Shown: piece after piece, positions 8,743-51,300 of the stretch
Layout of the letters: every line of letters starts with the position of its first letter
Position numbering within the stretch: the first letter of the stretch is position 1
Origin: Squalus acanthias
Lineage: Eukaryota
NCBI GenBank assembly: GCA_030390025.1
Contig: CM059426.1
Location: 215,636,001-215,690,709 of the forward strand
Direction: 5' to 3'
Length of the DNA stretch: 54,709 bases
Program-made: the position numbers and the translations under genes
The notes under the pieces: model-generated
Databases searched by the model: none
What the model saw: the letters and a program-made list of their open reading frames with translations, nothing else
Told to the model about the DNA's origin: nothing

Positions 8743-9478
8743 CAAATTGATAATCAAGGGGCTAAAGGGAGGGAGGAACTTAAAACAATCACTATCACTG
8801 GAGAAAAAGTACTAGGCAAACTAATGGGACTAAATCCTGACAAGTCCCCTAGACCTGATGACCTGCATCCCAGGGTTTTAAAAGAAGTGGCTGCAGAGAT
8901 AGTGGATGCGTTGGTTGTAATCTACCAAAATTCCCTGGATTCTGGAGAGGTCCCAGCGAATTGGAAAACCGGAAATGTAACTCCCCTATTCAAGAAAGTA
9001 GGGAGACAGAAAGCAGGAAACTATAGGCCAGTTAGCCTAACATCTGTCATTGGGAAAATGCTGGAATCCATTATTAAGGAAGTAATAGCAGGACATTTAG
9101 AAAATCATAATACAATCAAGCAGAGTCAACATGATTTTATGAAAGGCAAATCGTGTTTGACAAATTTACTAGAGTTCTTTGAGGATGTAACGACCAGGGT
9201 GGATAAAGAGGAACCAGTAGATGTAGTATATTTGAATTTCCAGGAGGCATTCGATAAGGTGCCGTATAAAAGGTTACTGCACAAGATAAGAGCTCACGGT
9301 GTTGGGGGGAATATATTAGATTGGATAGAGGATTGGCTAACTGACAGAAAACAGAGAGTCGGAATAAATGGGTAATTTTCAGGTTGGCAAACTGTAACTA
9401 GTGGGGTGCCGCAGGGATCAGTGCTGGGGACTCAACTATTTACAATCTATATTAAAGACTTGGATGAAGGGACCAAGT

Positions 9479-10738
9479 GTACTGTGGGTTCCGCCAAGAA
9501 CACTTGGCTCCCAACCTCATTACAGCCTTGGTCCAAACATGGACAAAGGAGCTGAACTCCAGAGGTGAGGTGAGAGTGACTGCCCTTGACATCAAGGCAG
9601 TATTTGACCGAGTATGGCATCAAGGAGCCCTAGTAAAACTGAAGTCAATGGGAATCGGGGAAAACGCTCCACTGGCTGGAGTCATACCTAGCACAAAGGT
9701 AGATGGTTGTGGTGGTTGAAGATCAATCATCACAGCCTGAGGACATCGCTGCAGGAGTTCCTCAGGGCAGTGTCCTAGGCCCAACCATCTTCAGCTGCTT
9801 CATCAATGACCTTCCCTCCAACATAAGGTCAGAAATGGGGATGTTCGCCGATGACTGCACAGTGTTCAGCGCCATTCACAACTCCTCAGATAATGAAGCA
9901 GTCCATGCCCGCATGCAACAAGACCTGGACGACGTTCAGGCTTGGGCTGATAAGTGGCAGGTAACATTCGCGCCACAGAAGTGCCAGGCAATGACTATCT
10001 CCAACAAGCGAGAGTCTAACCACCTCCCCTTGACATTCAACAGCATTACCATTGCCGAATCCCCCACCATCAACATGCTGGGGGGTCACCATTGACCAGA
10101 AACTTGACCGGACCAGCTATGGCAACAAGAGCAGGTCAGAGGCTAGGTATTCTGCGGCGAGTGTCTCACCTCCTGACTCCCCAAAGCATTTCTACCATCT
10201 ACAAGCCACAGGTAAGGAGCGTGATGGAATACTCTCCACTTGCCCGGATGACTGCAGCTCCAACAACACTCAAGAAGCTCGACACCATCCAAGACAAAGC
10301 AGCCCACTTGATTGGCACCCCATCCACCACCTTAAACATTCACTCCCTCCACCACCGGTGTACCGTGGCTGCAGTATGTACCATCTACAAGATGCACTGC
10401 AGCAACTCGCCAAGGCTTCTTCGGCAGCACCTCCCAAACCCACGACCTCTTCCACCTAGAAGGACAAGGGCAGCAGGCGCATGGGAACACCATCACCTCC
10501 AAGTTCCCATCCAAGTTACACACCATCCTGACTTAGAAGTATATCGCCGATCCTTCATCGTTGCTGGGTCAAAATCCTGGAACTCCCTTCCTAACAGCAC
10601 TGTGGGAGTACCTTCACCACACGGGTTGCAGCAGTTCAAGAAGGCGGCTCACCACCACCTTCTCAAGGGCAATTAGGGATGGGCAATAAATGCTGGCCTT
10701 GCCAGCAACGCGCACATCCAATAACAAATAAAAAACAA
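9479..10738 (+). mobile_element. 5'-truncated LINE 'B' (CR1/L2-group, distinct family), RT and 3' end
   Basis: [34 protein letters not shown] motifs; 3' end with AATAAA and A-rich tail aataacaaataaaaaacaa. Confidence 0.85.
10519..10738 (+). repeat. 220-bp direct repeat, left copy (LINE B 3' end)
   Basis: Matches 18127-18346 with one visible mismatch (acgggttg vs acaggttg). Confidence 0.95.
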
Positions 10739-10975: not shown

Positions 10976-11165
10976 ACTCCTCTCTTATAAAAAGTCCGCG
11001 GTCGGTTGTCTACGTTTGTCTTTCCTCCACGCGATTCCGAATCTCTCCGGTTGGTAGACGGCTCGAGGTCCCATATAGAGCTCTAACTTCGGCGGTATTA
11101 TTTAACTAATTACCGACCCGGCTGAAAAGCCTACGACTCGAGACCCCAGTAAAGAAATCGGTATT

Positions 11166-12717
11166 ATGGCAGAAGATAAGAGCAAAGAATTGCCTACAAC
11201 TGTTAAAGGCGGGCGGGCCCCACCTCCGATTTCGGAAGGCGAAATTCTCCGACAGTTGAAAGAATATATAGAGCAACAATTTGACTTACCCAAAGCCTGT
11301 GCTGAGATCGAACAAAAATATGGTACCTCCAAGGGACCGTGGTCCTTGGAAGATATAAAAAGGGTCTGGGGAAAAACGACCCGTATGAAGGATAAAAAAC
11401 GAACCCGCTGGTCCCTAGCAGTCATGGGCCAGATCCGACAGCGAAGTGAAACTATGATGCACTCCCAACATAACCGTGATTTGACTAGTGCAAAAGAACA
11501 AAAAGACGCGATTTATGAACGGTTGAAAAAGGAAAAAGTTAAATCGGAAAAGTTAGAAACTAAAATTAAGGAATTGAAAAAAACAACTGCATGAAAAACC
11601 GGTAGCACCGTCTGAAGAATCCAAAGGAAAATGTGCCGGGTCCTGGCTGGGGTATCCCAGTCTGAATCAGATAAAGGAGGAGCAGAGGCGCGAAGCTGAT
11701 TTAGAAACAGATTCTGAGCCCTCTAGCGACTCTAGTGGAGAAAGTGGTACTGATGCGGAACCTCCTCGGGCGCGGCTCGTCCCATTGAAGAGAAAACGAG
11801 TAAAGATTAAGTCTGAAGAGAATACCGCCGAGAATGGTGCAAAGACAAAAACGAACCAATACACCCAAAATTACTATCACGACCTGGCGGATCCAGAAAA
11901 AATTGATAAGTGGTCGAAAGAACTGCCACACCCCAAGAGAGGGGGAATGAAGACATGGGAACAACTGGAACGTCTAAAAGGCATTTACCATCTCCACCCA
12001 TGGGATGGGGTCCAAATTCTGACCGTGATGGTACCTAGACGAGAGGGAAAGAAACTGGATAGAAAGGTAAGAAGTGCCCTTGGCGAGGACGAACAAGGAT
12101 TAGATGCCGGATGGGACGCGATCAAACAATGGTTACAGGTATTCAGCCCTGCAAAAACGGATTGGGGAAAGATTACAGCCTGTCAGCAAAAAGGGACGGA
12201 AGAAGTGTTAGAGTACGACGAAAGATTTAAAACTGTCTGGTTGGAACACTCGGGAATAAACACCGAGGGTGGACATGAGGGAATAGATGATAGCGACCTT
12301 GGACCCTTGAAGGCTGCCTTTGTTGCCGGTCTAAAACTGGAATTGTCAAAGATGCTGAAAATGACTCTACCGGAGTGGGAGGGCCCAGGAACAAAATATG
12401 CAGTAATAGTAGATAAGTGCAATCAACTAGACAGGGACATGGGAGCTAAAGTCCGAGCCCTGCAGGCGACAGAATGGAAATCCAAGAATCCTGACAAGCA
12501 GTCATCAGGGAAACTACCTGGAAAATGCCACTACTGTGGAAAGGAAGGTCACTGGGCTAAAACGTGCAGGGCAAAACAAGGAAGAGGACGGGGAGGATAC
12601 CATCCAAACTGGAAACCCGGCCCATCATCAGAGGGTGACGACCTCTTGCAGAGATTTAAGCAGCTTACATATGAGCAACAAGAGGAGTTACTCAAATTAC
12701 CTGTAGCAAAAAACTAG
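11166..12717 (+). pseudogene. gag: Retroviral Gag, one frameshift (extra A in the A-run ~11577-11583)
   Basis: Removing one A joins ORFs 11166..11594 and 11785..12717 through an open linker containing YPSL; MHR-like QQKGTEEVLEYDERF; single CCHC knuckle CHYCGKEGHWAKTC. Confidence 0.9.
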
Positions 12718-15700
12718 GAGAGCCCGCCCTCGCCCTCTCGGCACCCCTCCTGGCATTGATACAACAAAGAGGAGATGGGTTATATATAACCATGAGGGTG
12801 GGCGATCAGGACATAGACTGTCTCCTGGATACCGGAGCAGAATTAACATGTTTTCCTCTATGCTACGAAACATCTTTACCCCTGGATGGAAGGACACAAA
12901 CAGCCCATGGGGCTGGGGGTCACGGTCTGGTAATCAGAAGAACTCGACCTGTGCTCATTGGACTTGGCCCACACGAATTAACTACATCGGTCTGGGTAGG
13001 CCCAGTGGACCAAGCCCTTTTGGGAATGGATGTTTTGACTCAACTGGATTCCTCGTTGCATTTTAAGGACGGTCGGGTGACATGGTCTATTAGACTTCTG
13101 AAGAAAGAGGAGTTGAAGGAACACCCAATATGGGCCAAAGATAAGAACAATTGTGGCCTACTCCAGATGGAACCCACCTCATTTACCGGGACCACCCCCC
13201 CGTGCACTAAACAATATCCCATTAATCACACCTCCATTGCAGGAATCTTACCGGTCATCCAAAAATTGGAAGAGCGAGGGGTGCTGGTCAAAACCCATAG
13301 TTCGTCCAATAGTCCGGTATGGCCAGTACGGAAACCCAACGGTACATGGCGCCTAACTGTTGATTATAGAAAAGCCAACCAGTGTATTGATCAGAAGGCC
13401 CCTTTGGTCGCGGATCCCTCCACCATTTTTAATGTTCTCATGCCGGAACATAAATGCTTCTCGGTTATAGATATGGCCAACGGATTTTGGTCGGTGCCAT
13501 TGGCACCTGAGGTCCGACCGTGGTTTGCCTTTACCGTCCAACAGCAACAGTACACCTGGACCCGGCTACCACAGGGTTTTCACAACAGCCCCACGGTATT
13601 TCACATGGCCTTACAAAGCCATTTGCGAGAATTACCTACCATGCCCTCCACGGTTATCTAGTACGTGGATGATATTCTGTTAGCCTCCAACACGGAAGAA
13701 CAGCACGAACAGGACCTACGTACCATGCTGGACCACCTTCACCTGAAAGGACATAGAGCCAGCATTGACAAAGCACAAATAGCCCAAGAAGAGGTTGTGT
13801 ACCTGGGGCAAAAGATTTCGAAAGGAAAGAGAGAACTTACCCAGGACAGGACCACAGCCATTCGGGCTGCCAAACAGTCCACTACTATCCAAGAACTCAG
13901 GTCCTTTTTGGGTTTGTGTAACTTTAATAGAAATTGGATCGACTCTTACACACAGCTTGCTCAGCCATTGAATGACCTCTTAAAGGGGAAGCGGACATCA
14001 AAGGAAGCCATCGCCCTCACGAAGGAACAGCAAGAGGCCTTCGCGAATCTAAAAAAGGTCTCTGGGGATCCCCGACAGTGGTAAGACATTTACCCTGTTT
14101 GTCCATGAGAAAGGAGGATACATGACAGCTATACTGACACAAGAACATGGGGATCGGCAAAGGCCTATTGGCTATTATTCGGCAAAACTGGATGCGGTAG
14201 CCCTCGGATGGGGAAGTTGCCTAAGGGCCATGGAAGCCACATGTCGAGCGGTAATGACCACTGCGAGTCTAGTCCTCGACCAAAAGCTGATTGTCAAGTG
14301 TCCCCACACCGTGCACACCTTGCTGTCTATGAATAGAGTGTCTCAGGTGACGGCAGCTAGATGGACCCGATGGACAGCAGTCTTGGAAGCTCCTAACCTC
14401 CATATCGTCCGGGCCAGCCCGGTTAATCCCGCAACTATGCTCCCGATGTCTGAGAAGCAAAAGGAGGGAGGAGAATACGGAGGAGAGCATGACTGTGTGG
14501 AGATTTTAAAAGAAACAGAAGAAGCAGCATTAGCAGCAGGAGAACCTTTGCAAAATCCGGACCTCATCCTTTTTACAGATGGTTCCTCCTTTGTTAGACA
14601 ATGGCACCAGAAAAGCAGGATGGGCAGTTACAACCTTACATGAGGTCGTGACAAGAGGGTGTCTACCCTCAGGAACGTCAGCCCAACAGGCCGAGTTGCG
14701 AGCCCTGTCAGAAGCATGCCGGATAGCGGAGGGACAAACGGCTAATATCTATACGGATTCACGCTATGCTTTTGGAGTCACTCACGACTTTGGCCAGTTA
14801 TGGCGGAAAAGAGGATTTCTTACTGCCGCTGGTACACCTATTAGAAATGGGAAAGAGGTCCAAGACTTACTAGAAGCCATACAATTACCCCGGGAAGCAT
14901 CCATTTTGAAGTGTAAGGCCCATACGAAGGAAAATACCACAGAAGCGAAAGGAAATGCCCTGGCCAACCAGGCAGCCAAAGAAGCTGCTTCACAATGCGC
15001 TTCCCCGGGAGGACCAACAAAGATGTGCAGACTGGAAGCACTCAGTCTGACTCGGGACCTACGGACAATGCAAGGCGATTGCTCTAAAGAGGAAAAATGG
15101 ACATGGATGGAGGCAGGAATTAAGCTATGTGAAGACGGCGTCTGGAGACAAAGAGATACCGACAAGCCAGTCGCGCCACAGGCACTGATGCCCTTTTTAG
15201 CCCAACAGATCCACTCATGGGGACACCTGGCCCCACAACAGATGGCAGCCAGGTTTCAGAAAAGTTGGTGGGGCCGGGGATTCAAAAAACATGCCCAGCT
15301 GGTAGCAGACTGCTGTGTGGTCTGTCAGAAAAATAATCCCGGACCCATCACGATAATGCCCCAACTGAAGCCCCCTGCCCCTGCCGGACCATTCCAGCAC
15401 TTGCAGGTGGATTATATATCTCTCCCCCCATGTCAAGGATACACTGAAGTCTTAGTCATTGTCGACAGATTCTCCAGATGGGTAGAAGCTGCCCCAACCA
15501 GAAGAGCCACAGCCAATCATACTGCTAAGGTCCTGTGCAAAGATTATATCCCCCGATGGGGAGTCCCGACCAGCATTGACTCTGACCAGGGAACCCACTT
15601 CACAGGGGCTGTCTGCCAAGAAGTCTGTAGGTTACTAAACATTACGTGGGACTTACACCCACAATCATCAGGCCAAGTGGAACGAATGAATCGAACTCTG

Positions 15701-16159
15701 AAACAACGGCTTGCCAAGTATCATCAGGAAGGGATACCGTGGCCTCAGGCACTACCAATGGTCCTATGTAGTATTAGGGCAACCCCAAACAGAACCACGG
15801 GCCTGAGTCCATTTGAAATTATAATGGGAAGACCCATGTCACTGCCAGGAACCATTGATTTGCGAAAAGCTGATTGTCACTTAATGAGTGACGCTTTATT
15901 AGAATACTGTCAGAACCTAACAAATGCTATTAGTTCTGCTTCCCGACAGGTATCGGCAGCTTGGGGAGATCCACCAGAAGGAGGACACGACATTATCCCA
16001 GGAGTTTGGGTTTACGTGAAAAAGATACATAAAGAACCTTTGGGCGCTAAGTGGGAAGGACCTTACCAAGTGTTGCTGACCACTCAAGCAGCTGTTAAAG
16101 TCCAAGGGAAGAAAGCTTGGATTCACGCATCTCACGTTAAGCGAGCCTCCAGTAACTGA
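12714..16159 (+). pseudogene. pol: Retroviral Pro-Pol (protease, RT, tether, RNase H, integrase), disrupted
   Basis: LLDTGA protease; LPQGFHNSP and YVDD RT; FTDGSS/AQQAEL/YTDSRY RNase H; HHCC, DDE (QVDY, SDQG, VERMNRTLK) and WEGPY integrase. Lesions: TAG at 13659-13661 and frameshifts near 14058 and 14594. Confidence 0.95.
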
Positions 16160-16189
16160 ACTTTAAGGACAATTGTTATCTTGCCAAAA

Positions 16190-17575
16190 ATGATTAAGTA
16201 TATTGTGTTATTGTTTGCATGTATTCTAGGCATCTGCTTACTTTTAACCAGCCGACCCTCCACACCTCAGGAGAATAATCGAGTACCTAGGGAATTACAT
16301 GTAAACACCCTGTTGTATATGTCATACACTTATGCCAAAAGGAGTAATATTTCCAGTTGTTGGGTATGTACGCATGTGCCTGTACATTCAATGGGAGGCA
16401 TTCCCCTGAGACCCATCCCCTTTAATGCCTCAGAAATAGCCGAATGGATAATTAGACAGAACACCTCCTGGCAGAATACTTCCCAAAGCGAAAACATCTC
16501 TTATGGAAGAAATACTTCCAATATGGAGGATTGGGAACCAGACTGGAAGTCAGCAGGCTATAATTTAACTACCTTCCAGGGGTGGTACCAACCCAATTAT
16601 AATCGGACCCGGCAACCCCCGTTTTTGGTCCTCACTAGTACCTCCGGGGTGGGAAGACAATTAGGAGAGTTATGTTTAGTTAGAAGTCAAGCGGGAGGAC
16701 AGAAGGTTGGTAACAGTAGCTGCTTTCAGAGTTACCATATAACTCCACCCCACAACTGGACCGATGTGAGTCAGTTTAACATGACAGGTGTCCGTAACAA
16801 GACAAGTGGGGACGCCTGGTCGGGCCCCAACCCTATGGTAACAAATAAGCAGTTGGACTTCACCTCGTATAATAATACTTACTTTATCTGTGGCCACAGG
16901 GCCTACCTCTGGTTACCGCAATCCTGGACAGGATCGTGTTATTTGGGTTATGTTACAACCTACACCCGTCATTTGACCTCCCTGCCTGAGCCGCCTCGCT
17001 GGCAAAGAGTGAGACGAGCAATTATAGAAACGGAGAGATTCTTCGCTATCTTGGTTCCCTGGTATGGGACCGCAAAGCTGGCGAGGGAGTCCATTAACAT
17101 GGCATCTGTCCTAGAAAAGGTGGCCAATGATACCTCTGAAGCACTGGTTGAGATTAGTGCAGAAATGGTAGCAACCCGCACGGTAGCCCTACAGAACAGA
17201 ATGGCCCTTGACTACCTTCTGGCTGAAAGGGGAGGCACTTGCGCCCTAATTGGAGCCGAATGTTGTACCTACATCCCAGATAGCTCCGAAGAGATCACTC
17301 GTCTGGCAGAGCGTATCCGAGAGGAGGTAAAAAAGCTAAAACAGCCTCCAGCCTCCACCTTGTGGGGTTGGGTGACTGGGTGGCTAGGCTCACTAGGAAC
17401 CTCATTGGTGCAAAGTCTAATTCTACTCTGTGTAATTATCTTACTTTTATATTGCTTGTATATGTTGATAAAATGCTGTTGCAACCAGGCGGCTGTAGCC
17501 GCTGCCCCGCAGGAGAGATGCCTGGAAGGTCCTCGCAAACCATTTCTACATTGCACAGGGGCATGTTATGTTTGA
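16190..17575 (+). CDS. env: Retroviral envelope glycoprotein, gamma-type, uninterrupted 461-aa ORF
   Basis: Signal-like MIKYIVLLFACILGICLLL, CWVC (CXXC), many N-x-S/T sites, furin site RVRR, ISD-like LQNRMALDYLLAERGG, CX6CC (CALIGAECC), TM helix. Confidence 0.92.
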   Translation: MIKYIVLLFACILGICLLLTSRPSTPQENNRVPRELHVNTLLYMSYTYAKRSNISSCWVCTHVPVHSMGGIPLRPIPFNASEIAEWIIRQNTSWQNTSQSENISYGRNTSNMEDWEPDWKSAGYNLTTFQGWYQPNYNRTRQPPFLVLTSTSGVGRQLGELCLVRSQAGGQKVGNSSCFQSYHITPPHNWTDVSQFNMTGVRNKTSGDAWSGPNPMVTNKQLDFTSYNNTYFICGHRAYLWLPQSWTGSCYLGYVTTYTRHLTSLPEPPRWQRVRRAIIETERFFAILVPWYGTAKLARESINMASVLEKVANDTSEALVEISAEMVATRTVALQNRMALDYLLAERGGTCALIGAECCTYIPDSSEEITRLAERIREEVKKLKQPPASTLWGWVTGWLGSLGTSLVQSLILLCVIILLLYCLYMLIKCCCNQAAVAAAPQERCLEGPRKPFLHCTGACYV

Positions 17576-21397: not shown

Positions 21398-24300
21398 GAG
21401 TCATTACGGCACAGAAGGAGGCCATTCGGCCCATCGAGTCCGTGCCGGCTCTCTGTAGAGCAATGCAGTCAGTCCCATTCCCCCGCTCTATCCCCGTAGC
21501 CCTGCAAGTTTATTTCCCTCAAGTGCCTATCCAATTTCCTTTTGAAATCATTGAGTGTCTCCGCTTCCACCACCCTCGTTGGCAGCGAGTTCCAGGTCAT
21601 TACCACTCGCTGCGCAAAAAAGTTCTTCCTCACATCCCCCCTGTATCTCTTGCCCAAAATCTTCAATCTGTGTCCCCTAGTCCTTGTACCATCAGCTAAT
21701 GGGAACAGCCTTTCTCTGTCTACCTTATCCAAACACATCATAATCTTGTACACCTCTATCAAAACTCCCCTCAACCTCCTTTACTCCAAGGAGGACAACC
21801 CCAGCTTCTCCAACCTAACCTTGTAGCTGAAATCCCTCATCCCTGGAACCATTCTGGTAAATCTCCTCTGCACCCGCTCAAGGACCTTCACATCCCTCCC
21901 AAAGCATGGTGACCAGAACTGGACGCAATACTCTAGTTGTGGCCTAACCAGAGCTTTATGAAGGTTCAGCATAACTTCCCTGCTTTTCATAGAATCATAG
22001 AAAGTTACAGAATGGAAGGAGGCCATTTCGGCCCATCGTGTCTGCGCCGGTCAACAAAGAGCTATCCAGCCTAATCCCACTTCCCAGCTCTTGGTCCGTA
22101 GCCTTGCAGGTTAGAGCATCCCAAATGCACATCCAAGTACTTTTTAAATGTGGTTAGGGTTCCTGCCTCTACCACCCTTTCAGGCTGTGAGTTCCAGACC
22201 CCTCACAACCATCTGGGTGAAGACATTTCCCCTCAAATCCCCTCTAAACCTTCCACCAATTACTTTAAATCTGTGCCCCCTGGTTTTTGACCCCTCTGCT
22301 AAGGGAAATAGGTCCTTTCTATCCACTTTATCTATGCCCCTCATAATTTTATACACCTCAATAAGGTCTCCCCTCAGCCTCCTCTGTTCCAAGGAAAACA
22401 GACCCAACCTATCCAGTCTTTCCTCATAGCGAAGATTCTCTACTCCCAGCTACATCCTTGTAAATCTCCTCTGTACCCTCTCTAGTGCAATCACATCTTT
22501 CCTGTAATGTGGTGACCAGAACTGCACGCAGTACTCTAGCTGAGGCCTAACTAGTGTCTTATACAGTTGAAGCATAACCCCCCTGCTCTTGTATTCTATG
22601 CCACGGCTAATAAAGGCAAGCATTCCGTATGCCTTCTTAACCACCTTATCTACCTGGCCTGCTATCTTCAGGGATCTGTGGACATGCGCTCCAAGGTCCC
22701 TTTGTTCCTCTACACTACTCAGTGTCCTACCATTTAATATGTATTCTCTTTCATTGTTAGCCCTCCCCAAATGCATTACCTCACACTTCTCCGGATTGAA
22801 TTCCATTTGTCACTGTTCTGCCCACCTGACCAATTTATTGATATCTTCCTGCAGTCCACAGCTTCCTTCTTCAGTATCAACCACACAGCCGATTTTAGTA
22901 TCATCTGCAAACTTCTTAATCATACCCCCTATATTCAAGTCTAGATCATTGATATATACCACAAAAAGCAAGGGACCTAGTACTGAGCCCTGCGGAACCC
23001 CACTGGAAACAGCCTTCCAGTCACAAAAACACCCATCAACTATTACCCTCTGCTTCCTGTCTCCGAGCCAGTTTTGAATCCAACTTGACACTTTGCCCTG
23101 GATCCCATGGGCTTTTAACTTCGTGACCAGTCTGCCATGTGGAACCTTATCAAAAGCCTTGCTAAAGTCCACATACACTACATCAAACGCACTACCCTCA
23201 TCTACCCTCCTTGTTACCACCTCAAAAAATTCAATCAAGTTTGTCAGACACGACCTTCCCTTAACAAATCCGTGCTGACTATCCTTGAATCCGTGTCTTT
23301 CTAAATGAATACCTCCATTTATGAAGCCCAAGATCCCATATGCTTTGCTAACTACTCTCTCAATATGTCCTGCCACCTTCAAAGATCTATGCACATGAAC
23401 CTCCAGGTCCCTCCGTCCCTGCACATTCTTTAGAACTGTGCCATTAAGTCTATATTGTCTCTCCCTATCCCTTCTGCTAAAATGCATCACCTCACTTTTA
23501 TCTGTATTAAATTCCATCTGCCACTTGTCTGCCCATTCTGCTAGCCTATCTATGTCCTGTTGCAGTCGATTGGTATCATCAGCACTGTTTGCCACACCTC
23601 CAAGTTTGGTATCATCGACAAATTTTGAAATTTTACTCTGTATTCCGATATCCAAGTCATTTATATATATCAAAAAAAGCAGTGGTCCGAGCACTGACCC
23701 TTGGGGAACACCACTGTCTACCATCCTCCAGTCTGAAAAGCAACCATTTACCATGACTCGCTGTTTTCTGTCCTTAAGCCAATTTCTTATCCAAGCTGAC
23801 ACTGACTCTCCTATTCCATGAGCCTCAATTTTGTTAACAAGCCTTTTATGTGGTACTTTGTTAAACGCTTTCTTAAAATCCATATAGACAACACCCACTG
23901 CATTCCCTTCATCAATCATCTCTGTTACTTCATCAAAAAATTCAATTAGATTAGTCAAACACGATCTGCCTTTTACAAATCCGTGCTGGCTCTCCTCAAT
24001 TAACTTATACCTTTCCAAGTGCCTGTTAATTTATTCCCTGATTATTGTTTCTAAAACCTTACCTACCACTGATGTTAAACTGACCGGTCTGTAGTTACTA
24101 GGATTGTCCTTACACCGTTTCTTGAACAAGGGTGTCACATTTGCCACTTTCGATGCACCTCCCCCGCATCTAGGGAAGATTGGAAGATCATGGCAAGCCC
24201 TTCTGCTATCTCCCCCCCCCAACTTCCCTTAGTAGCCTGGGATGCAAGCCATCCGGACCAGGCGACTTATCCACTCTAAGCATATCCAGCCTTTTCAGTA

Positions 24301-27290: not shown

Positions 27291-30200
27291 TCGGCAGCAA
27301 CTCAACACAGGCAGTTTTTGAAAAAGTGACGTCAGGGTAATAAAAATGTGACATTGGCACAAGGGAAGGAGCTGATTGGCGAGTAGCTGGTGAGTGTTTT
27401 TTTTACAGTTTATTTCTGCCAAGTTAGATAATAGCCTATAAAATAGATGGAAAGAGCTGATTGGTGAGTAGCTGGGGAGTGCTTTTTGTTAAGTTTTAAG
27501 TTTATTTCTGCTGGGTTAGTTCTCAGTGTATTAAATAGAGGCATGGCAGGGCAGCTCAGTCCCATGGAGTGCTCATCCTGTGCCATGTGGGAAGTCCTGG
27601 ACGCTTCGCGTAGCCTGGACGACCACACGTGCGGGAAGTGTCGCCAGCTACAGCAACTCGAGCTCCGGGTTTTGGAGCTTGAGCGGCGGCTGGAGTCACG
27701 GCGGTGCATCCGCGAGGCTGAGAGTTAGGTGGATAGCATGTTTCTAGAGGTGGTCATCCCGCAGCTTAAGAGTATGCAGGCAGAGAGGGAATGGGTGACC
27801 GCCAGACAGAAGAGGCCCACCAGGCAGGTAGCGCAGGAGTCCCTGGAGTGCATTGCGCTCTCCAACCAGTATTCTGTTCTGAGTACTGGTGAGGTCAATG
27901 GTTCCTCTGGGGAGTGCAACCAGAGTCAAGTCCACGGCAGCACGGGTGGCTCAGCTGCACAGGGGGTGGCGGAGGAACAAGAGTGGAAGAGCAATAGTGG
28001 TCGGGGATTCGACAGTTAGGGGAGCAGACAGGCATTTCTGCGGCCATAGACGTGACTCCAGGATGGTATGTTGCCTCCCTGGTGCCAGGGTCAAGGATGT
28101 CACTGAGCGGCTGCAGGACACTCTGAGGGAGGAGGGTGAACAGCCAGAGGTCGTTCTCCATATTGGTACCAATGACATAGGCAGAAAGAGGGATGAGGTC
28201 CTGCAGGCAGAGTTTAGGGAGCTAGGATAGAGATTAAAAAGCAGGACCTCAAAGGTAGTAATCTCCGGATTACTCCCGGTGCCACGTGCTAGTGAGTACA
28301 GGAATAGGAGGATAGAACAGATGAATGCTTGGCTCGAGAGATGGTGCAGGAGGGAGGGCTTTAGATTCCTGAGGCATTGGGACCGTTTCTGGGGAAAGTG
28401 GGACCTGTACAAGCCGGACGGGTTACACCTCAAAAGAGCCGGGACCAATATTCTCATGGGGAGGTTTGTTAGTGCTGTTGGGGAAGGTTTAAACTAACTT
28501 GGCAGGGGGGTGGGCACCAGCATATAGGAGTACAAAAGATGAATAAGGTGCATAAAAGAGTGAGTGTGTTGGATAGACTACGAAAAATTCAAAAATGGGT
28601 TTAGAATGCATGTACGTAAACGCACAAAGTGTGGTGAATAAGGTTGCTGAGCTGCAAGCACAATTAGCCATGTGGCAATATGATGTTGTGGCAATAACGG
28701 AAACGTGGCTTAAAAACGGTGAGGACTTGGCAATTAATATTCAAGGGTACAAGGTGTTCAGAAAAGATAGGGAAGGAAAAAAGGGAGGTGGGGTGGCAGT
28801 GCTGATTAAGGAAGACATTGTAGTGTTGGAAAGGGAGGATGTTCTTGAGGGGACAAGGACAGAATCCATTTGGTTAGAGTTGAGGAGCAAAAAGGGTATG
28901 ATCACGCTATTGGGGGTATTCCATAGGCCTCCAAATAGTGAGAGGGAGGTAGAGGAGGAAATCTGCAGGGAAATCGCAGAGATATGTAAGAGCTATAGAG
29001 TGGTGATATTGGGGGACTTTAATTACCCAAATATCAATTGGGATAATGATAGGGTAAAGGGAAAGGAGGGGGAGGAATTTCTGAAATGTATTCAGGAAAA
29101 TTTCCTTGACCAATATGTTCTTGGCCCAACGAAGAAGGAGGCATTGCTGGATCTGGTGCTGGGGAATGAGGTGGGCCAGGTCGAACAAGTGTCTGTGAGA
29201 GAACACTTGGGTACGAGTGATCATCGTATTATAAGATTTAGATTAGCAATGGAGAGGAGCAAGGAACAATCTAGAGTGGAACTTCTAAACTGGAATAGGG
29301 CTAACTTCAATGGGATGCGAAAGGATCTAGCCAGGGTAAAATGGAACCAAAGACTGACAGGAAAAACTGTAATGGAACAATGGGTGACCTTTAAGGAGGA
29401 AATGTTCCAAGTACAGGCTAGGTACATTCCAACAAGAGGGAAGGGTAAGGGAACCAAAGCAAGGGCTCCTTGGATGACGAGGGAGATAGAGAAGATGATG
29501 AAACAAAAAGAGAGTGTATGATGCATGTCAGATGAATTCTTCAAGGGAGAACCAGACCAAATACAAATACAATCAGTTGAGAGGGGATGTGAAGATGAAA
29601 ATAAGATTGGCAAAGAGAGAATATGGGAGTAGAATGGCGGTAGAAGCAATGGAAGGGGTGAAAATTGATAAACAGGATGTACTAGAACGGCTGGGTATGC
29701 TTAGAGTGGACAAGTCGCCTGGTCCAGATGGCTTGCATCCCAGGTTGCTAAGGGAATTGGGGGAGGAGATAGCGGAAGGGCTTGCCATAATTTTCTAATC
29801 TTCCCTAGATGCGGGGGAGGTGCCGGAGGATTGGAAAGTGGCAAATGTGACACCATTGTTCAGGAAAGGGTGTAAGGACAATCCTAGTAACTACAGGCCG
29901 GTCAGTTTAACATCAGTGGTGGGTAAAGTTTTAGAAACAATAATCAAGAAAAAAATTAACGTGCATTTGGAGAGGTTTAAGCTAATTGAGGAGAGCCAAC
30001 ACGGGTTTGTAAAAGGCAGATCGTGTTTGACTAATCTAACTGAATTTTTTGATTAAGTAACAGAGAGGATTGATGAAGGGAATGCAATGGATGTTGTCTA
30101 CATGGATTTTTCGGAAGGCGTTTGACAAAGTACCACATTTGAAGGCTTGTTAACAAAATTGAGGCTCATGGAATAGGTGGGTCAGTGGCAGCTTGGATAA

Positions 30201-33615: not shown

Positions 33616-34231
33616 AGACACTGCAATGTTTTATTCATTTAACAGGAAAAGCTATTAGAAAGGGGATTTTTGCATGGTTATTTTACTCTCCAAACGTTTT
33701 ATTCTTTTATCAGTTATTCATTTAAGTTAGCGCTCAACTGTACATTGATTTTATTTGTACAGGGCTAACTGTCAGAAAACATGAGCACAAACTGTATTAA
33801 GCAGTCCAACAATGACAGCACCTTTGCAGAACGTGGCTTTGAATATGTGATATTCAGCAACAGTGCAGGAACAAAGACATCCAAAGAAAATCTGGACAAT
33901 GGCCATTTGGGACATTGTTATTGGCTGCATTATCTATCCTGAAATGCCCTCAAACAAACCAATATATTCTAAATGCACTGCCCATTATGTTTTTCATGAT
34001 CACAGGCAAATTGGCAGGAGAATTGATAAAGTGGCATCCATCATCATTTATTAATGAATAAAAATCATTCAAATTCAGACCTTGTTTGAAGGAGTGATAT
34101 GCCTTAGGCAGGAATATTTAAGCAGCAAGATGCAGCGCTGGCTAACTGGAGCCCTTGTTTTTAAGGCTGAACTCCTTACCATTAAAACTAAAGAAGCATT
34201 GCTGCTGCTCCCTCTGCAGTTTGATGTTATT

Positions 34232-35161
34232 GCTCTACCTCACTACCTCTTCTCTCGACCTCGCCACAGTATCTAAATTGTCAGAATGCTTGGCCGACAT
34301 ACAGTTCTGGATGAGCAAAAATTTTCTCCAATTAAATATCGGGAAGACCGAAGCCATTGTTTTCGGTCCCCGCCACAAACTCCATTCCCTAGCCACTGAC
34401 TCCATCTCTCTCCCTAACATCTGTCTGAGGCTGAACCACACTGTTCGCAACCTTGGTGTCATATTTGACCCCGAAATGAGCTTCCGACCACATATCCACA
34501 GCATAACAAAGACCGCCTACTTCCACCTCCGTAACATCGCCCGTCTCTGCCCTTGTCTCAGCTCATCCGCTGCTGAAATCCTCATCCATGCCTTTGTTAC
34601 CTCTAGACTTGACTATTCCAACATACTCCTGGCTGGCCTCCCACATTCCACCCTATGTAAAGTTGAGGTCATCCAAAACTTGGCTGCCCGTGTCCTAACT
34701 CACACCAAGTCCCGTTCACCCATCACCCCTGTGCTCGCTGACCTACATTGGCTCCCAGTTAAGCAACGCCTCGATTTCAAAATTCTCATCCTTGTTTTCA
34801 AATCCCTCCATGGCCTCGCCCCTTCCTATCTCTGTAATCTCCTGAGATATCTGCGTTCCTCTAATTCTGCCCTCTTGAGCACCCCTGATTATAATCGCTC
34901 AACCTTTGGTAGCCGTGCCTTCTGTTGCCTAGGCCCGAAGCTCTGGAATTCCCTGCCTAAACCTCTCAGCCTCGCTACCTCTCTTTCCTCCTTTAAGACA
35001 CTCCTTAAAACCTACCTCTTTGACCAAGCTTTTGGTTACCTGCCCTAATTTCTCCTTATGTGGCTCGGTGTCAAATTTTTTGTCTTAAAATACTCCTGTG
35101 CAGCGCCTTGGGACGTTTTACTACGTTAAAGTCGCTATATAAATACAAGTTGTTGTTATTG
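34232..35161 (+). mobile_element. 5'-truncated L2-clade LINE
   Basis: ORF 34155..35048 has WMSKNFLQLNIGKTE, NLGVIFD, SRLDYSN, LHWLP, LWNSLP, LKTYLF; tail ...gctatataaatacaagttgttg. Confidence 0.92.
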
Positions 35162-43585: not shown

Positions 43586-43965
43586 CTTTCGCGGGCTTTT
43601 TTGCAGAGGCCAGTGTCGGGAGCGGAGAGAGCAGCAGCACAGTGAGTAGTTAAACTCACTTTCGCGGGCTTTTTTGCAGAGGCCAGTGTCAGGAGCGGAG
43701 AGAGCAGCAGCACAGTGAGTAGTTAAACTCACTTTCGCGGGCTTTTTTGCAGAGGCCAGTGTCGGGAGCGGAGAGAGCAGCAGCACAGTGAGTAGTTAAA
43801 CTCACTTTCGCGGGCTTTTTTGCAGAGGCCAGTGTCGGGAGCGGAGAGAGCAGCAGCACAGTGAGTAGTTAAACTCACTTTCGCGGGCTTTTTTGCAGAG
43901 GCCAGTGTCGGGAGCGGAGAGAGCAGCAGCACAGTGAGTAGTTAAACTCACTTTCGCGGGCTTTT
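43586..43965 (+). repeat. 73-bp tandem repeat (5 units plus a partial) in the CR1 'E' 5' UTR
   Basis: ctttcgcgggctttt recurs at 43586, 43659, 43732, 43805, 43878, 43951; units near-identical. Confidence 0.95.
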
Positions 43966-44441
43966 CTTTCACAGGCTGTTGTCGGGAGAGACGAGACCGG
44001 AAGCGGACCAGGTGGGAAGCACCCAGGTGAACGGCATTTAAGGAGGGTGGTGGCTTAAACCCGAGTTCCTACAGAGTAGGAACCCCCACCCGCCCTCCTC
44101 CTCTAACCTACTAGTCTTTTAGCAGTCTAAAAACAGAGGTCACAAATTTTTTGGTCTCAGTTTCTTTTCAGCAGGGCAGGAACCGGGAGGAGCGGGAAGT
44201 CGGTGTAGGACCAAGGGGACACAAGACCGGGAAGTCAGCGAAAGACCAGGGAGGTAAGACTAACTGGTAAGTACTTTCCTCAAACCTTCCTAGAAAGTAA
44301 AACTAAAACTAGTGGGATTTGGTTAGTTTAAAAAGGAATAAGACGAGTACAGTATACATTGGTCTAAGTAAGCTTCAGGAAAACAAAAGTCAATAAATAA
44401 ACTAAAACTAGAAAATTAAAAAGTAATATAAGGGTTAAGTC

Positions 44442-45389
44442 ATGGCAGTAGAGCTCGGACCTGTGTCATGCTCCTCCTGTAACATGTGGAAAATCAGGGA
44501 CGCTTCCTGTGTCCCTGACAACCATGTGTGCGGGAAGTGTGTCCAGCTGCAGCTCATGTGGGACCGCATGACGGCCCTTGAGCTGCGGATGGACTCACTT
44601 TGGAGCATCCACGATTCTGAGAGGGTTGTGGATAGCACATTTAGTGAGTTGGTCACACCGCAGGTTAAGGCCAGCGTAGATAGTACATGGGTGACCAAAA
44701 GGCAGAGCAAGGGCAGGAAGGTAGTGCAGAAATCCCCTGGGGTTGTCTCCCTTAGCAACAGGTTCACCGCCTTAGGTGCTGTTGTCGGGGGGGATGACTC
44801 ATCGGGGGAAGGCACCAGCAGCCAGGCTCATGGCACCATGACTGGCTCTGTTGCAAAGAAGGGAGGGAAAAAGAGTGGCAGGGCTATAGTAATAGGGGAT
44901 TCGATTGTAAGGGGAATAGATAGGGGTTTCTGTGGTCGCGACCGAGACTCCAGGATGGTATGTTGCCTCCCTGGTGCAAGGGTCAAGGATGTCTCGGCGC
45001 GGGTGCAGAACATTCTGGAGGGGGAGGGGGAACAGCCAGTTGTCGTGATACATGTTGGTACCAACGACGTAGCTAAAAAAAGGGAAGAGGTCCTACAAGT
45101 AGAATTTAGGGAGTTAGGAGCCAAGCTAAAAAGTAGGACCTCGAAGGTAGTAATCTCTGGATTACTACCAGTGCCACGTGCTAGTAAGAGTACAGAGAAC
45201 AGGATAGTTAGGCTAAATACGTGGCTTGAGCAGTGGTGTAAGAGGGAGGGTTTTAAATTTTTGAGGCATTGGAACCAGTTTTGTGGTAGGTGTGACCTAT
45301 ACAAAAGGGACGGTCTACACCTGTGCAAAGATGGAACTGATGTTCTCGGGGTAATTTTTGATAAAGCAGTTCGGGAGCATTTAAACTAG
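44442..45389 (+). CDS. CR1 ORF1 protein (zinc finger, leucine zipper, SGNH esterase), 315 aa
   Basis: CSSC...CGKC, heptad LMWDRMTALELRMDSL, SNRF, IGDSIVR, HVGTND, DGLHL. Confidence 0.93.
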   Translation: MAVELGPVSCSSCNMWKIRDASCVPDNHVCGKCVQLQLMWDRMTALELRMDSLWSIHDSERVVDSTFSELVTPQVKASVDSTWVTKRQSKGRKVVQKSPGVVSLSNRFTALGAVVGGDDSSGEGTSSQAHGTMTGSVAKKGGKKSGRAIVIGDSIVRGIDRGFCGRDRDSRMVCCLPGARVKDVSARVQNILEGEGEQPVVVIHVGTNDVAKKREEVLQVEFRELGAKLKSRTSKVVISGLLPVPRASKSTENRIVRLNTWLEQWCKREGFKFLRHWNQFCGRCDLYKRDGLHLCKDGTDVLGVIFDKAVREHLN

Positions 45390-48332
45390 TATGGCAGGGG
45401 GCTAGAAACCTATGTAGTGAAATAGAGGAAAGTGAAAGGCAGACAGAAATAAATGGTAAAAGGGTGAGGAACAAAAAACAAAGGGCCAAACTAATTCATA
45501 AAAAATGTGAGCATAAAAAAAGCCTGAGGGTTTTATACCTTAATGCGAGAAGCATCAGGAACAAGGTAGATGAATTAGCTGTGGAAATAGAGGTTAATAA
45601 TTATGATCTAATTGGGATTACGGAAACATGGTTGCAGGGTGAGCAGGGCTGGGAGCTTAACATACAGGGGTATTCAGTATTTAGGAAGGATCGACAAAAA
45701 AGAAAGGGAGGAGGGGTAGCATTGCTGGTAAAAGAGGGGATAAATGCAATTGAAAGGAAGGATATTAACTCAGTTAATACAGAATCTATATGGGTGGAGC
45801 TAAGAAATAGCGAGGGGCGAAAAACATTAATAGGAGTGGTATATAGGCCTCCAAATAGTAAAATAGAGGTTGGGGAGGGCATCACGAGGGAAATTAGAGA
45901 AGCGTGCAATAAGAGCACAGCTGTCATCATAGGTGACTTTAACTTACATATAGATTGGACTAGCCTAATCAGTAAAAATAATGAGGAGGAGGAATTCCTT
46001 GAGTGTTTAAGGGATGGTTATCTGGATCAATATGTCGAGGAACCAACTCGGGAACAGGCTATATTGGACTGGGTACTGTGCAATGAGAAGGGACTAATTA
46101 GTAATCTTGTTGTACGGGGACCCTTGGGTCAGAGCGATCATAACATGATCGATTTCTCACTCGAAATGGAGAGCGAAGAAATTGACTCAGAGACTAAGGT
46201 CCTGAATTTAAACAAGGGGAATTATGATGCCATTAGACGGGAACTGAGTAGGTCTGATTGGACAACGTTCCTGGGAGGACTGGAGGTAAATAAACAATGG
46301 CAAGCATTTATAGATAGAATGACAAAATTGCAAAAATTGTTTATACCAATCTGGCATAAAAGGAAATCTAAAAAGGTGACTCAACCGTGGATAACAGGGG
46401 AAATTAGAGACAGCATAAAATCCAAAGATAGGGCGTATAAAATAGCCAAAAAAAGCGCCAGAGCGGAGGATTGGGAACAGTTTAAGATAGAGCAAAGGAG
46501 GACAAAGGGCTTAATCAAGAGGGGCAAAATAGCTTACGAAAGCAAGCTGGCGGAAAATATAAAAACTAACTCCAAAAGCTTTTATAAGTATATCAAGAGG
46601 AAAAGACTGGTGAAAACCAAAGTTGGCCCATTGCAGTCAGATACGGGGGAATATATAACGGGAAATAAGGAAATGGCAGACCAACTAAATGCATACTTTG
46701 GGTCAGTCTTTACGAAGGAAGACACAAAAAACCTCCCTGGGATATCGGGAAAAATAGGGACATTGGCAAAGGAGGAACTGACGCAAATCAATATCTCTAA
46801 GGATATGGTGTTAAGGAAGCTAAAGGGATTGAAGGCGGACAAATCCCCAGGGCCTGATAACATGCATCCTAGGGCTACTGAAGGAGGTGGCCCTAGAGAT
46901 AGCGGATGCACTAAGTATGATTTTTCAGAATTCATTAGACTCGGGAACAGTGCCCATGGATTGGAGGGTAGCTAACGTTACCCCACTATTCAAAAAGGGG
47001 GGTAGGGAAAAAGCAGGTAATTACAGACCTGTAAGCCTTACATCAGTTGTGGGCAAAATGCTGGAGTCCATCATTAAGGATGAAATAGCGGAGCACTTAG
47101 CAAATGGGGACAGGATAGGACAGAGTCAACATGGATTTACAAAGGGTAAATCGTGCTTGACTAATCTATTGGAATTTTTTGAGGGAGTAACTGGTAAAAT
47201 AGATGGGGGAGAGCCAGTAGATGTGGTGTACCTGGACTTCCAAAAGGCCTTCGATAAGGTCCCACATAAAAGATTAGCATGGAAAATTGAAGCTCATGGG
47301 ATAAAGGGGAAAGTATTGACGTGGATAGAGAACTGGCTGTCAGATAGAAAACAGAGAGTTGGAATAAACGGCTCATTTTCTGAATGGCAGGCAGTAACAA
47401 GTGGGGTACCACAGGGATCTGTCCTGGGTCCCCAGCTGTTCACAATTTACATTAATGACCTGGATCAGGGAGTCGGATGCAGCATTTCCAAATTTGCAGA
47501 CGACACTAAACTAGGAGGGGGGGTGGGCTCAGAGGAGGAGACCAGGAAGCTCCAGAGCGATTTGGACAGACTGGGTGATTGGGCGGATAAATGGCAGATG
47601 CACTATAATGTGGACAAGTGCGAAGTTATCCACCTTGGGTGCAGGAACGGGAGGGCAAATTATTATTTAAATGGCAATAAATTGGGAGAGGGGGAAGTAC
47701 AGAGAGACCTGGGTGCTCTTGTACACCAGTCACTGAAGGCGAGCATGCAGGTGCAACAGGCGGTCAAGAAGGCAAACGGTATGCTGGCCTTCATAGCAAA
47801 AGGGTTGGAATACAGGAACAGGGATACCTTGCTGCAGCTGTACAGGGCACTGGTGAGACCACACCTCGAGTACTGTGTACAGTTTTGGTCGCCTCATCTG
47901 AGGAAAGATGTTCTTGCCATGGAGGGGGTGCAGCGGCGATTCACCAGGCTGATACCAGGAATGGCGGGATTGACCTATGAGGAGAGACTATGTAGTTTAG
48001 GGATGTACACACTGGAGTTTAGAAGATTGAGAGGGGACCTCATAGAAGTGTATAAAATTCTGACAGGTCTAGACAGACTAGATGCAGAAGGAATGTTTCC
48101 CTTGGCGGGTGAGAACAGAACTAGAGGACATAATTTAAGGATAAGGGCTAAACCATTTAGGACAGAAATGAGGGGGAATTTCTTCACTCAGAGGGTGGTG
48201 AACCTGTGGAACTCATTGCCACAGAGGGCAGTGTACGCCAGCTCATTAAATATATTTAAGAGGGAATTAGATATATTTCTACAGGCAAAAGGGGTTAAGG
48301 GTTACGGAGAGAAGGCGGGGACGGGATACTGA
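45383..48332 (+). pseudogene. CR1 ORF2 (APE endonuclease + reverse transcriptase), one +1 frameshift at ~46875
   Basis: ORFs 45464..46975 and 46887..48332 join as HPRVLKEVALE if one C in agggctactg is removed; no other stops seen. Confidence 0.92.
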
Positions 48333-51300
48333 ATTGGAGGATCAGCCATGATCTCATTAAATGGCGGAGCAGGCTCGAAGGGCCGGATGGCCTACTCCTG
48401 CTCCTATCTTCTATGTATCTATGTATGTATCTATGTACCTCTATCAAATCACCCCTCAACCTCCTTTGCTCTGATAAAAACAAATCCAGCTTCTCCAACC
48501 TGTCCTTGTAGCTAAGATCCCCGATCCCCAGAACCATTCTGGTAAATCTCCTCTGCACCCTCTCAAGGGCCTTCACATCCTTCCTAAAGTGTGGTGACCA
48601 GAACTGGACACAATACTCCAGTTGTGGCGTAACCAGCGCTTTATAAAGGTTCAGCATAACTTCTCTACTTTTGTACTCAATACCTCTATTTATGAAACCC
48701 AAGATCCCATATGCTTTGTTAACCACTCTCTCAATATGTGCTGCCACCTTCAGGGACATTAACTCCCAGGTCCCTCTGTCCCTGCACACTCTTTAAAACT
48801 GTGCCATTAAGTGTATATTGCCTCTCCCTGTTCCTTCTGCCAAAATGCATCACCTCACACTTCTCTGTATTAAATTCCATCTGCCACTTGTCTGCCCATT
48901 CTGCTAGCCTTTCTATGTCCTGTTGCAGTCGATTGGTATCATCAGCACTGTTTGTCCACACCCCCACGTTTGGTGTCATCGCAAATTTAGAAATTCTACT
49001 CTGTATTCCAATATCCAGGTCATTTATATATATATACCAACAAAAGCAGTGGCCCCAGCACTGACCCTTGAGGAACACCACTGTCCTACCATCCTCCAGT
49101 CTGAAAAACAGCCATTTACCACAACTTGCTGTTTTCTGTCCTTAAGCCAATTCCTTATCCAAGCTGCCACTGACCCACCTATTCCATGAGCCTCAATTTT
49201 GTTAACCAGCCTTCTATGTGGTACTTTGTCAAACGCCTTCCAAAATCCATGTAGACAACATCCACTGCATTCCCTTCATCAATCATCTGTTAATTCATCA
49301 AAAAATTCAGTTAGATTAGTCAAACACGATCTGCCTTTTACAAATCAGTGTTGGCTCTCCTTAATTAGCTTAAACCTCTAAAGTGCCCGTTAATTTTTTC
49401 CTTGATTATTGTTTCTAAAACTTTACCCACCACTGATGTTAAACTGACCAGGCTGTAGTTACTAGGATTGCCCTTACACCCTTTCTTGAACAATGGTGTC
49501 ACATTTGCCACTTTCCAATCCTCAGGCACCTCCCCCGCATCTAGGGAAGATTGGAAAATTATGGCAAGCCCTTCCGCTATCTCCTCCCCCACTTCCCTTA
49601 GCAACCTGGGATGCAAGCCATCTGGACCAGGCGACTTGTCCACTCTAAGCATACCCAGCCTTTCTATCAATTTTCACCCCTTCCATTGCTTCTGCCTTTT
49701 CCACTTTGATCGATATTTTGTCAGCATCCACCTCCTTAGTAAATACCGATACAAAGTACTCATTGAGTATTCTAGCCTTGCCCTGTGCCTCGAAGCATAT
49801 ATCACCTTCTTTGTTCCTAATAGGCCCCAATCCCGCCTCTTGCTACCAGCTTACTGTTTACATGCCGGTAGAAGATTTTTGGGTTCCCTTTTATGTTAAC
49901 CGCCATTCTACTCTCATATTCTCTCTTTGCCGATCTTATTTTCATCTTCACATCCCCTCTCAACTGATTGTATTTGGTCTGGTTCTCCCTTGAAGAATTC
50001 ACCTGACATGCATCATACACCCTTTCTTTGTTTCATCATCTTCTCTATCTCCCTCGTCATCTAAGGAGCCCTTGCTTTGGTTCCCTACCCTTCCCTCTTG
50101 TTGGAATGTACCTAGCCTGTACTTCGAACATCTCCTCCTTAAAGATCACCCATTGTTCCGTTACAGTTTTTCCTGTCAGTCTTTGGTTCCATTTTACCCT
50201 GGCTAGATCCTTTCGCATCCCATTGAAGTTAGCCCTATTCCAGTTTAGAAGTTCCACTCTAGATTGTTCCTTGCTCCTCTCCATTGCTAATCTAAATCTT
50301 ATGATACGATGATCACTCGTACCCAAGTGTTCTCCCACAGATACTTGGTCGACCTGGCCCACCTCATTCCCCAGCACCAGATTCAGCAATGCCTCCTTCC
50401 TAGTTGGGCCAAGAGCATATTGGTCAAGGAAATTCTCCTGAACACATTTCAGAAATTCCTCCCCCTCCTTTCCCTTTACCCCAGCATTATCCCAATCGAT
50501 ATTTGGGTAATTAAAGTCCCCAATATCACCACTCTATAGCTCTTGCATATCTCTGCGATTTCCTTGCAGATTTGCTCCTCTACCTCCCCTCTCACTATTT
50601 GGAGGCCTATAGAATACCCCCAATAGCGTGATCATACCCTTTTTGCTCCTCAACTCTAACCAAATGGATTCTGTCCTTGTCCCAAGAACATCCTCCCTTT
50701 CCAACACTACAATGTCTTCCTTAATCAGCACTGCCACCCCACCTCCCTTTTTACCTTCCCTATCTTTTCTGAACACCTTGTACCCTTGAATATTAAGTGC
50801 CCAGTCCTCACTGTTTTTAAGCCACGTTTCCGTTATTGCCACAACATCATATCGCCACACGGCTAATTGTGCTTGTAGCTCACCAACCGTATTCACCACA
50901 CTTTGTGCATTTACGTACATGCATTCTAAACCCATTTTTGAATTTTTCGTAGTCTTTCTTAGTCTGCTCCTATCTAATATGGTACTACTACCGCCTCTAG
51001 TACTATCTTCTCTAGTACTATCCAACACAATCACTCTTTTATGCACCTTATTCCTCTTTTCTACTCCTATATGCTGGTGCCCATCCCCCTGCCAAGCTAG
51101 TTTAAACCCTCCCGAACAGCACTAACAAACCTCCCCGCGAGAATATTAGTCCCGGCTCTGTTGCGGTGTAAACCGTCTGACTTGTACAGGTCCCACCTTC
51201 CCCAGAAACGGTCCCAATGCCTCAGGAATCTAAAGCCCTCCCTCCTGCACCATCTCTCGAGCCACGCATTCATCTGTTCTATCCTCCTATTCCTTTACTC

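Follow-up and report, generated by a model that had tools for sequence, protein, structure and literature searches.

The DNA analysed here is a window of 54,709 nt from Squalus acanthias (GenBank assembly GCA_030390025.1, contig CM059426.1, positions 215,636,001 to 215,690,709 of the forward strand), and all coordinates below count from its first letter. It contains a full-length CR1-type LINE, together with the ORF1/ORF2 junctions of two further CR1 copies. The features discussed in this study are the following:

43586..48437, plus strand: full-length CR1-type LINE, made up of a 5′ repeat array, ORF1, ORF2 and a 3′ microsatellite tail
43586..43988, plus strand: 5′ UTR array of 5.5 copies of a 73-nt unit (TRF)
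44442..45389, plus strand: ORF1, 315 aa, with a Cys-rich N-terminus, an SGNH esterase domain (PF13472, E 4.5e-11) and an HLN-stop end
45365..45389, plus strand: overlap of ORF1 and ORF2, with ORF2 in the −1 frame, open after the TAA at 45362
45380..45386, plus strand: phased slippery heptamer T_TTA_AAC
45387..45389, plus strand: ORF1 stop codon, adjoining the heptamer; a stop stands at the same place in 13 of 18 junctions
45397..45401, plus strand: conserved run of five Gs starting 10 nt past the heptamer, a candidate stimulator
45365..46975, plus strand: 5′ part of ORF2, with a 50-codon linker after the heptamer and then the APE endonuclease from about 45539
46833..48332, plus strand: 3′ part of ORF2, reverse transcriptase (PF00078, E 1.9e-31)
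48412..48437, plus strand: 3′ microsatellite tail without poly(A)
28488..28509, plus strand: junction of a second, divergent CR1 copy, with the heptamer, TAA, 7 nt and five Gs; its linker frame is broken
51085..51106, minus strand: junction of a third CR1 copy, with the heptamer, TAG, 7 nt and five Gs

The order of domains in ORF2, an APE endonuclease and, after it, a reverse transcriptase, was established from matches to PF03372, PF14529 and PF00078. Three features of a canonical vertebrate CR1 element are present: an esterase ORF1, which is named as a CR1 feature in PMC13343379, an APE-RT ORF2 and a short-repeat 3′ tail lacking poly(A). Placement in CR1 is based on the tree of ORF1 esterase domains and on the likeness of the junction to CR1-labelled rows of a published table. 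The nearest named relatives of ORF1 came from sharks and rays, at no more than 69% identity. The ORF2 reading frame of the 43586-48437 copy is disrupted by a frameshift near 46870, and this copy is therefore unable to make a whole fusion of the two products. CR1-group elements are the dominant retrotransposons in most vertebrates (PMC13343379), and the translation of ORF2 in LINEs has been described as an open question (PMC3894237).

The original prediction for this locus, drawn from the letters alone, held that ORF2 is reached by −1 ribosomal frameshifting at T_TTA_AAC just before the ORF1 stop. Its description of the layout was accurate: positions 45378-45389 read CAT TTA AAC TAG in the ORF1 frame and place the correctly phased heptamer at 45380-45386, the ORF2 frame is −1 and open from 45365, and the first ATG in that frame occurs as late as 46145, at codon 261, inside the motif SDHNM. 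This ATG lies downstream of the endonuclease motifs LNARS, ITETW, YRPP, GDFN and LDWV, that is, of all motifs located but the last.

Across all six frames of the window, phased TTTAAAC precedes only 4 of 5045 stop codons, and three of these four sites are CR1 junctions (45380, 28488 and, on the minus strand, 51106). The phased heptamer before the ORF1 stop is not a product of chance. The more complex pattern of heptamer, stop, seven nucleotides and five Gs was matched three times in the window versus none in 100 shuffles, which serves as a background figure only, since the pattern was drawn from these very sites. In the third copy (51085..51106, minus strand) the −1 frame remains open for 61 codons, up to an endonuclease motif. 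As a minor feature of the 43586-48437 copy, an out-of-frame ATG at 45391 opens an ORF of 4 codons; it is absent from the two other copies in the window.

Two contigs from public sequencing runs matched the region 44961/44968-46300 with 1 and 3 differences and zero gaps; one of the two may be the very source of the window. A further contig, divergent at 68 differences, also spanned the junction, and both of its gaps fell upstream, at 45328-45331. The offset between ORF1 and ORF2 is not a mutation of a single copy. RNA reads from two runs covered the junction at depths of approximately 90 and 140 and revealed no splice joint or indel at a level of 8 reads in 100, rarer RNA-level events being such as would escape detection. 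These reads bear on the possibility that the frame is corrected in the RNA, either with the AG of the stop acting as a splice acceptor or with a polymerase slipping on the T/A run and adding a base. CTAG does resemble a 3′ splice site, and 45380-45385 is a short T3A3 run; however, besides the lack of any joint or insertion in the reads, no pyrimidine tract is present, and TAG is replaced by TAA or TGA in 3 of the 18 junctions compared below, all of which makes RNA-level correction extremely improbable.

For a comparison of junctions, metagenome loci were sought with peptide patterns situated well upstream of the junction; 164 were confirmed, and the best 80 of these were fetched. CR1 esterase clades were the best match for 25 of the 80, of which 15 reached the junction and 10 ended short of it; together with the three window copies, this gave a set of 18 CR1 junctions. 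A comparison of the kind called for in the original prediction supported it, with T_TTA_AAC kept in 15 of the 18, and T_TTA_AAT (locus L004), G_GGA_AAC (L002) and a degenerate heptamer (L006) found once each. A stop codon directly followed the heptamer in 13 junctions and was one substitution away in four more. When 12 copies carrying T_TTA_AAC were aligned on the heptamer, the 33 columns on its 5′ side included no invariant one (best column 10/12), and the upstream DGLHL motif varied synonymously in its Gly and Leu codons, while the Leu codon of the heptamer was always TTA and the base preceding it always T. Judged from this alignment, the heptamer is conserved beyond the need of the protein, at synonymous positions and across divergent CR1 lineages, albeit in counts that overstate independence since CR1 sequences are related.

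A published table of consensus sequences (PMC13343379 supplement) yielded 20 rows with the heptamer followed by TAG or TAA, of which 17 were junction-like; the supplement was searched by motif in cells of up to 400 letters, and these row counts therefore have no denominator. By their labels, the hosts of these 17 rows were sharks, rays, a chimaera, coelacanth, bowfin, a frog and crocodilians.

A similar picture was obtained at the level of the ORF1 protein. A total of 263 ORF1 homologues were pooled, and a filter blind to the last residues retained 147 in which the end of the esterase was complete. Seventy-eight of the 147 terminated in Leu-Asn, and the residue before Leu allowed a T-ending codon in 77 of these 78 versus 42 of 78 one position earlier; the counts are not independent trials, given that Leu-Asn also ended the queries and that the rows are related. 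Hosts of the Leu-Asn proteins included sharks, rays, alligator, turtles, a snake, lizards, an eel, a sturgeon and a frog. In a quick-search tree of 125 esterase domains, from which the last residues had been removed, a vertebrate fork (SH-aLRT 84) of 55 rows carried x-Leu-Asn-stop in 54. The nine Gly-Asn endings were all in its sister fork of 33 rows, with Gln as the preceding residue in eight cases and Ser in one. Locus L002, the best match of which is a Gly-Asn protein, has G_GGA_AAC, TAG and a G run in its DNA; it is the single DNA example of this group and ends before ORF2. The Gln-Gly-Asn endings of the sister clade are compatible with G_GGA_AAC. Slippage finds its strongest support in this exchange of one canonical slippery heptamer for another, in which the residue ahead of it changes accordingly. 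Both U_UUA_AAC and G_GGA_AAC rank with the heptamers on which mammalian ribosomes shift most readily (PMC5009743).

The original prediction had also proposed folding the stretch downstream of the heptamer as a check; in the window copy this stretch does not fold. Compared with shuffled sequences, the 11 junctions of sufficient length gave folding z-scores from −2.0 to +1.5, with no signal of a local hairpin and no shared structure; an RNAalifold consensus of 13 junctions had 0 pairs, and Rfam returned no match at the junction. Pseudoknots were judged through a shared first stem, of which there was none. A classical stimulator, meaning a stem-loop or pseudoknot 5-9 nt downstream, was thus not found at these junctions.

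A run of five Gs does recur: counted from the heptamer, it fills positions +11 to +15 in 14 of the 18 junctions. The exceptions were L002, where the run starts one base later, L042 and L006, which do not fit, and L010, which is too short. In the published consensus, five Gs could be placed by eye exactly at +11 in 6 of the 17 junction rows (PMC13343379), and the spacing may be looser than the 18 junctions suggest; the consensus rows look gapped. The run sets the third positions of codons in the −1 frame, and in this respect it resembles a nucleotide signal. Taken across the aligned and published junctions, a heptamer, a stop and five Gs at the end of ORF1 are common to CR1 elements from sharks to reptiles.

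Two ways in which the G run might act were tried and rejected. A G-quadruplex was predicted in just 4 of 14 junctions, the window copy at 45380 not among them, and it was dropped as a general stimulator. A C-rich stretch of ORF1 approximately 430 nt upstream, formed by Cys-Leu-Pro-Gly codons, was a candidate pairing partner in 8 of 11 copies; since the G runs paired no better with their own stretch than with swapped ones (p = 0.13), this partner was rejected, its recurrence being put down to conservation of the protein. Among the copies compared, no conserved partner at long range could be found for the G run.

Twelve copies reached the start of the endonuclease. The −1 frame ran uninterrupted from the heptamer in nine of them and was broken within the linker in three, the intact linkers measuring 34, 35, 40, 40, 49, 50, 59, 61 and 86 codons. 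AUG was absent from four of the nine intact linkers, and in the other five AUGs occurred at unmatched places; in L007 and L009 one such AUG is in frame and only two bases past the ORF1 stop, where it would permit reinitiation. A conserved AUG or near-cognate start at or after the ORF1 stop was not found in the nine intact linkers or the window copies. A finding named in the original prediction as counting against it, a conserved in-frame AUG or non-AUG start upstream of the APE domain, was missing from the copies compared.

These observations allow two further explanations to be weighed. According to the first, translation ends at the ORF1 stop and resumes close by on ORF2 without requiring an AUG, the heptamer and G run forming a restart signal and ORF2p being a separate protein. 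Mammalian L1 ORF2 is thought to be initiated in this manner (PMC5009743), the stop belongs to the conserved block in the 13 junctions noted above, a classical stimulator was not found, and the AUGs of L007 and L009 are suitably placed. Nevertheless, restarting leaves unexplained both the correct phasing of an X_XXY_YYZ heptamer and the switch to G_GGA_AAC with its change in the preceding residue, and the copies have no AUG or near-cognate codon in common; we consider it unlikely.

In the second explanation, the block is kept for a reason other than decoding, such as the Leu-Asn terminus of ORF1p, a Gly close to the start of ORF2p or a site in RNA or DNA, and ORF2p is made from downstream AUGs or from a shorter RNA. 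The near-fixed Leu-Asn ending of the vertebrate clade and the AUGs in some linkers are in line with this, as are TTTAAAC-stop-like words that two shark consensus rows carry in their 5′ UTR (PMC13343379). Yet the fixed TTA, the preceding T and the third positions set by the G run exceed the needs of protein selection, the −1 frame is maintained across linkers of many lengths, and a protein started at the first AUG of the window copy would lack the endonuclease motifs. We regard conservation for a non-decoding reason as very unlikely.

The conservation and exchange of the heptamer, the open linker and the lack of a shared start all support the fusion of ORF1 and ORF2 by a −1 frameshift that was originally predicted. 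We therefore favour programmed −1 frameshifting at U_UUA_AAC as the likely means by which CR1 elements produce an esterase-EN-RT fusion, a conclusion reached through comparison of sequences. A minority of ribosomes would slip one base back as the Leu and Asn tRNAs move in tandem on the heptamer, giving in the 43586-48437 copy a transframe junction of EHLN followed by LVWQG. Most ribosomes would stop one codon further on, releasing ORF1p, with a high ratio of ORF1p to ORF2p as the expected outcome. Those that had slipped would read through the linker into the endonuclease and, in an intact element, make a fusion of approximately 1300 residues. With less assurance, we suggest that the pause comes from the five Gs at +11 to +15, probably via a bound protein or partner RNA, and that slow termination at the adjacent stop perhaps aids it.

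If frameshifting is correct, the CR1 enzyme carries an esterase domain, and annotations of ORF2 that begin at a downstream Met are mistaken. Such a mechanism would also set a rule for the construction of active CR1 elements, and the known recoding sites would gain one that is deeply conserved and unusual in its stimulator.

The arrangement resembles the U_UUA_AAC site of coronaviruses and retroviral gag-pol in that the upstream ORF ends in a phased X_XXY_YYZ heptamer, the polymerase ORF lies in the −1 frame and a fusion at a low ratio is predicted (PMC5009743). Unlike these viruses, CR1 is a non-LTR retrotransposon, its stop adjoins the heptamer and it has no hairpin or pseudoknot 5-9 nt downstream. 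A closer parallel for the downstream element is the nsp2 frameshift of an arterivirus (PRRSV), which likewise involves no RNA structure and depends on a linear motif 10 nt to the 3′ side; that motif is the C-rich CCCANCUCC, to which nsp1 and poly(C)-binding proteins attach (PMC8310308), whereas CR1 has five Gs instead. The spacing is the same in CR1, where a protein that binds the G run might stimulate the frameshift. Our tentative proposal, which may well prove wrong, is that vertebrate CR1 elements use a structure-free, protein-stimulated −1 frameshift in which a protein bound to the five Gs stalls the ribosome and sets the output of ORF2. Candidates for this protein would be a host G-run binder or, as a form of feedback, ORF1p itself.

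Among LINEs, a −1 frameshift for ORF2 has been stated for TRE5-A and TRE3-A of Dictyostelium (PMC5911963), which are APE-type non-LTR elements like CR1 but belong to a different lineage and host; the kind is therefore already known in this group. Mammalian L1 and silkworm SART1 share with CR1 a bicistronic LINE RNA and a low output of ORF2. SART1 employs termination-reinitiation through an overlapping UAAUG (PMC3894237) and mammalian L1 a spacer with AUG-independent restart (PMC5009743), layouts that were not seen in the CR1 copies. The 2016 review of frameshifting (PMC5009743) treats LINE ORF2 as a matter of initiation. No report of a CR1 frameshift signal was found in the literature searched, and early CR1 papers, which lie outside its coverage, may have proposed one; a CR1 frameshift is not stated in the available parts of PMC11835228, PMC5009743, PMC13343379, PMC3905857, PMC2734521, PMC8310308, PMC5911963, PMC4255032, PMC4176376, PMC4120745, PMC7140322, PMC13708176 and PMC3894237.

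Searches of viral and prokaryotic collections found no CR1 relatives, and 62 motif matches in viral contigs had no similarity to CR1. Naturally fused lineages were considered as well: P0298 (one member) and P0035 run the esterase into the endonuclease in one frame and are likely to be mutated copies. The P0298 fusion came from a longer-protein search that gave 12 matches; both fusions are single records and were not used as support.

The esterase-type ORF1 is shared by zebrafish ZfL2-1, an element of the L2 clade. Kajikawa et al. are said to have concluded in 2012 that its ORF2 probably arises when the stop of ORF1 is suppressed, which would likewise result in a fusion; this would reportedly be an in-frame readthrough, unlike the −1 shift of CR1. 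If the protein-stimulated frameshift holds for CR1, the CR1/L2 group would mirror the retroviruses, with a −1 shift or stop readthrough depending on the clade. From the best 80 of the 164 confirmed metagenome loci, 27 with an apparently intact TGA at the end of ORF1 were picked by hand. In 17 of these the endonuclease followed in the same frame without stops, in five the frame was broken and in five the endonuclease was not reached. Should such loci, whose layout agrees with the proposal for ZfL2-1, use readthrough, an ORF1-ORF2 fusion would be the common product of esterase LINEs, arrived at by two routes. The base after TGA was C in 25 of the 27 loci, mostly as CTA or CCA, a context that fits stop readthrough.

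A layout with ORF1 and ORF2 in the same frame, separated by the ORF1 TGA, was seen in esterase LINEs lying outside the CR1-type clade, among 27 metagenome loci (L008, L011, L022-L073) hand-picked for an apparently intact TGA at this position. CTA or CCA directly followed the stop in 22 of these 27 hand-picked loci, and in 17 of them the endonuclease could be reached in frame without encountering a further stop. On sequence grounds, the TGA junction of this other clade is a candidate conserved stop-readthrough site.

Different ORF1 endings were displayed by a sister clade, the second fork of the ORF1 esterase tree beside the vertebrate Leu-Asn clade (protein homologues P0174, P0175, P0179, P0190, P0197, P0200, P0223, P0233, P0234, P0198 and P0249). 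Their protein rows terminate in Gln-Gly-Asn or Ser-Lys-Asn, which are compatible with heptamers G_GGA_AAC and A_AAA_AAC. A single DNA example of such a junction was seen (metagenome locus L002:1486-1509).

The 5' UTR of the CR1 copy at 43586-48437 (+) consists of 5.5 copies of a 73-nt unit (43586-43988, 97% identity), similar to the monomer arrays of some LINE promoters. Among the motif matches in the PMC13343379 supplement, two shark CR1 consensus sequences, SquAca_CR1-3 and SquAca_CR1-18, carry a TTTAAAC-stop word in the 5' UTR, with a G-rich stretch 3' of it. A four-codon +1-frame ORF (45391-45405), beginning just past the ORF1 stop, was limited to this copy among the three window copies compared.

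Retroelement density was high across the window, which additionally contained:
11106-17575 (+), an endogenous retrovirus whose coding regions (gag, protease/RT, RNase H/integrase and env) are broken up over several frames
2003-2728, 6768-8006, 8572-9375, 10020-10676, 22810-24030 and 34146-35048, pieces of other LINEs belonging to several types

In public records, four CR1 ORF1 homologues (P0009, P0024, P0058 and P0298) were filed under a bacterial species name or within host gene models, likely reflecting contamination or mis-annotation.
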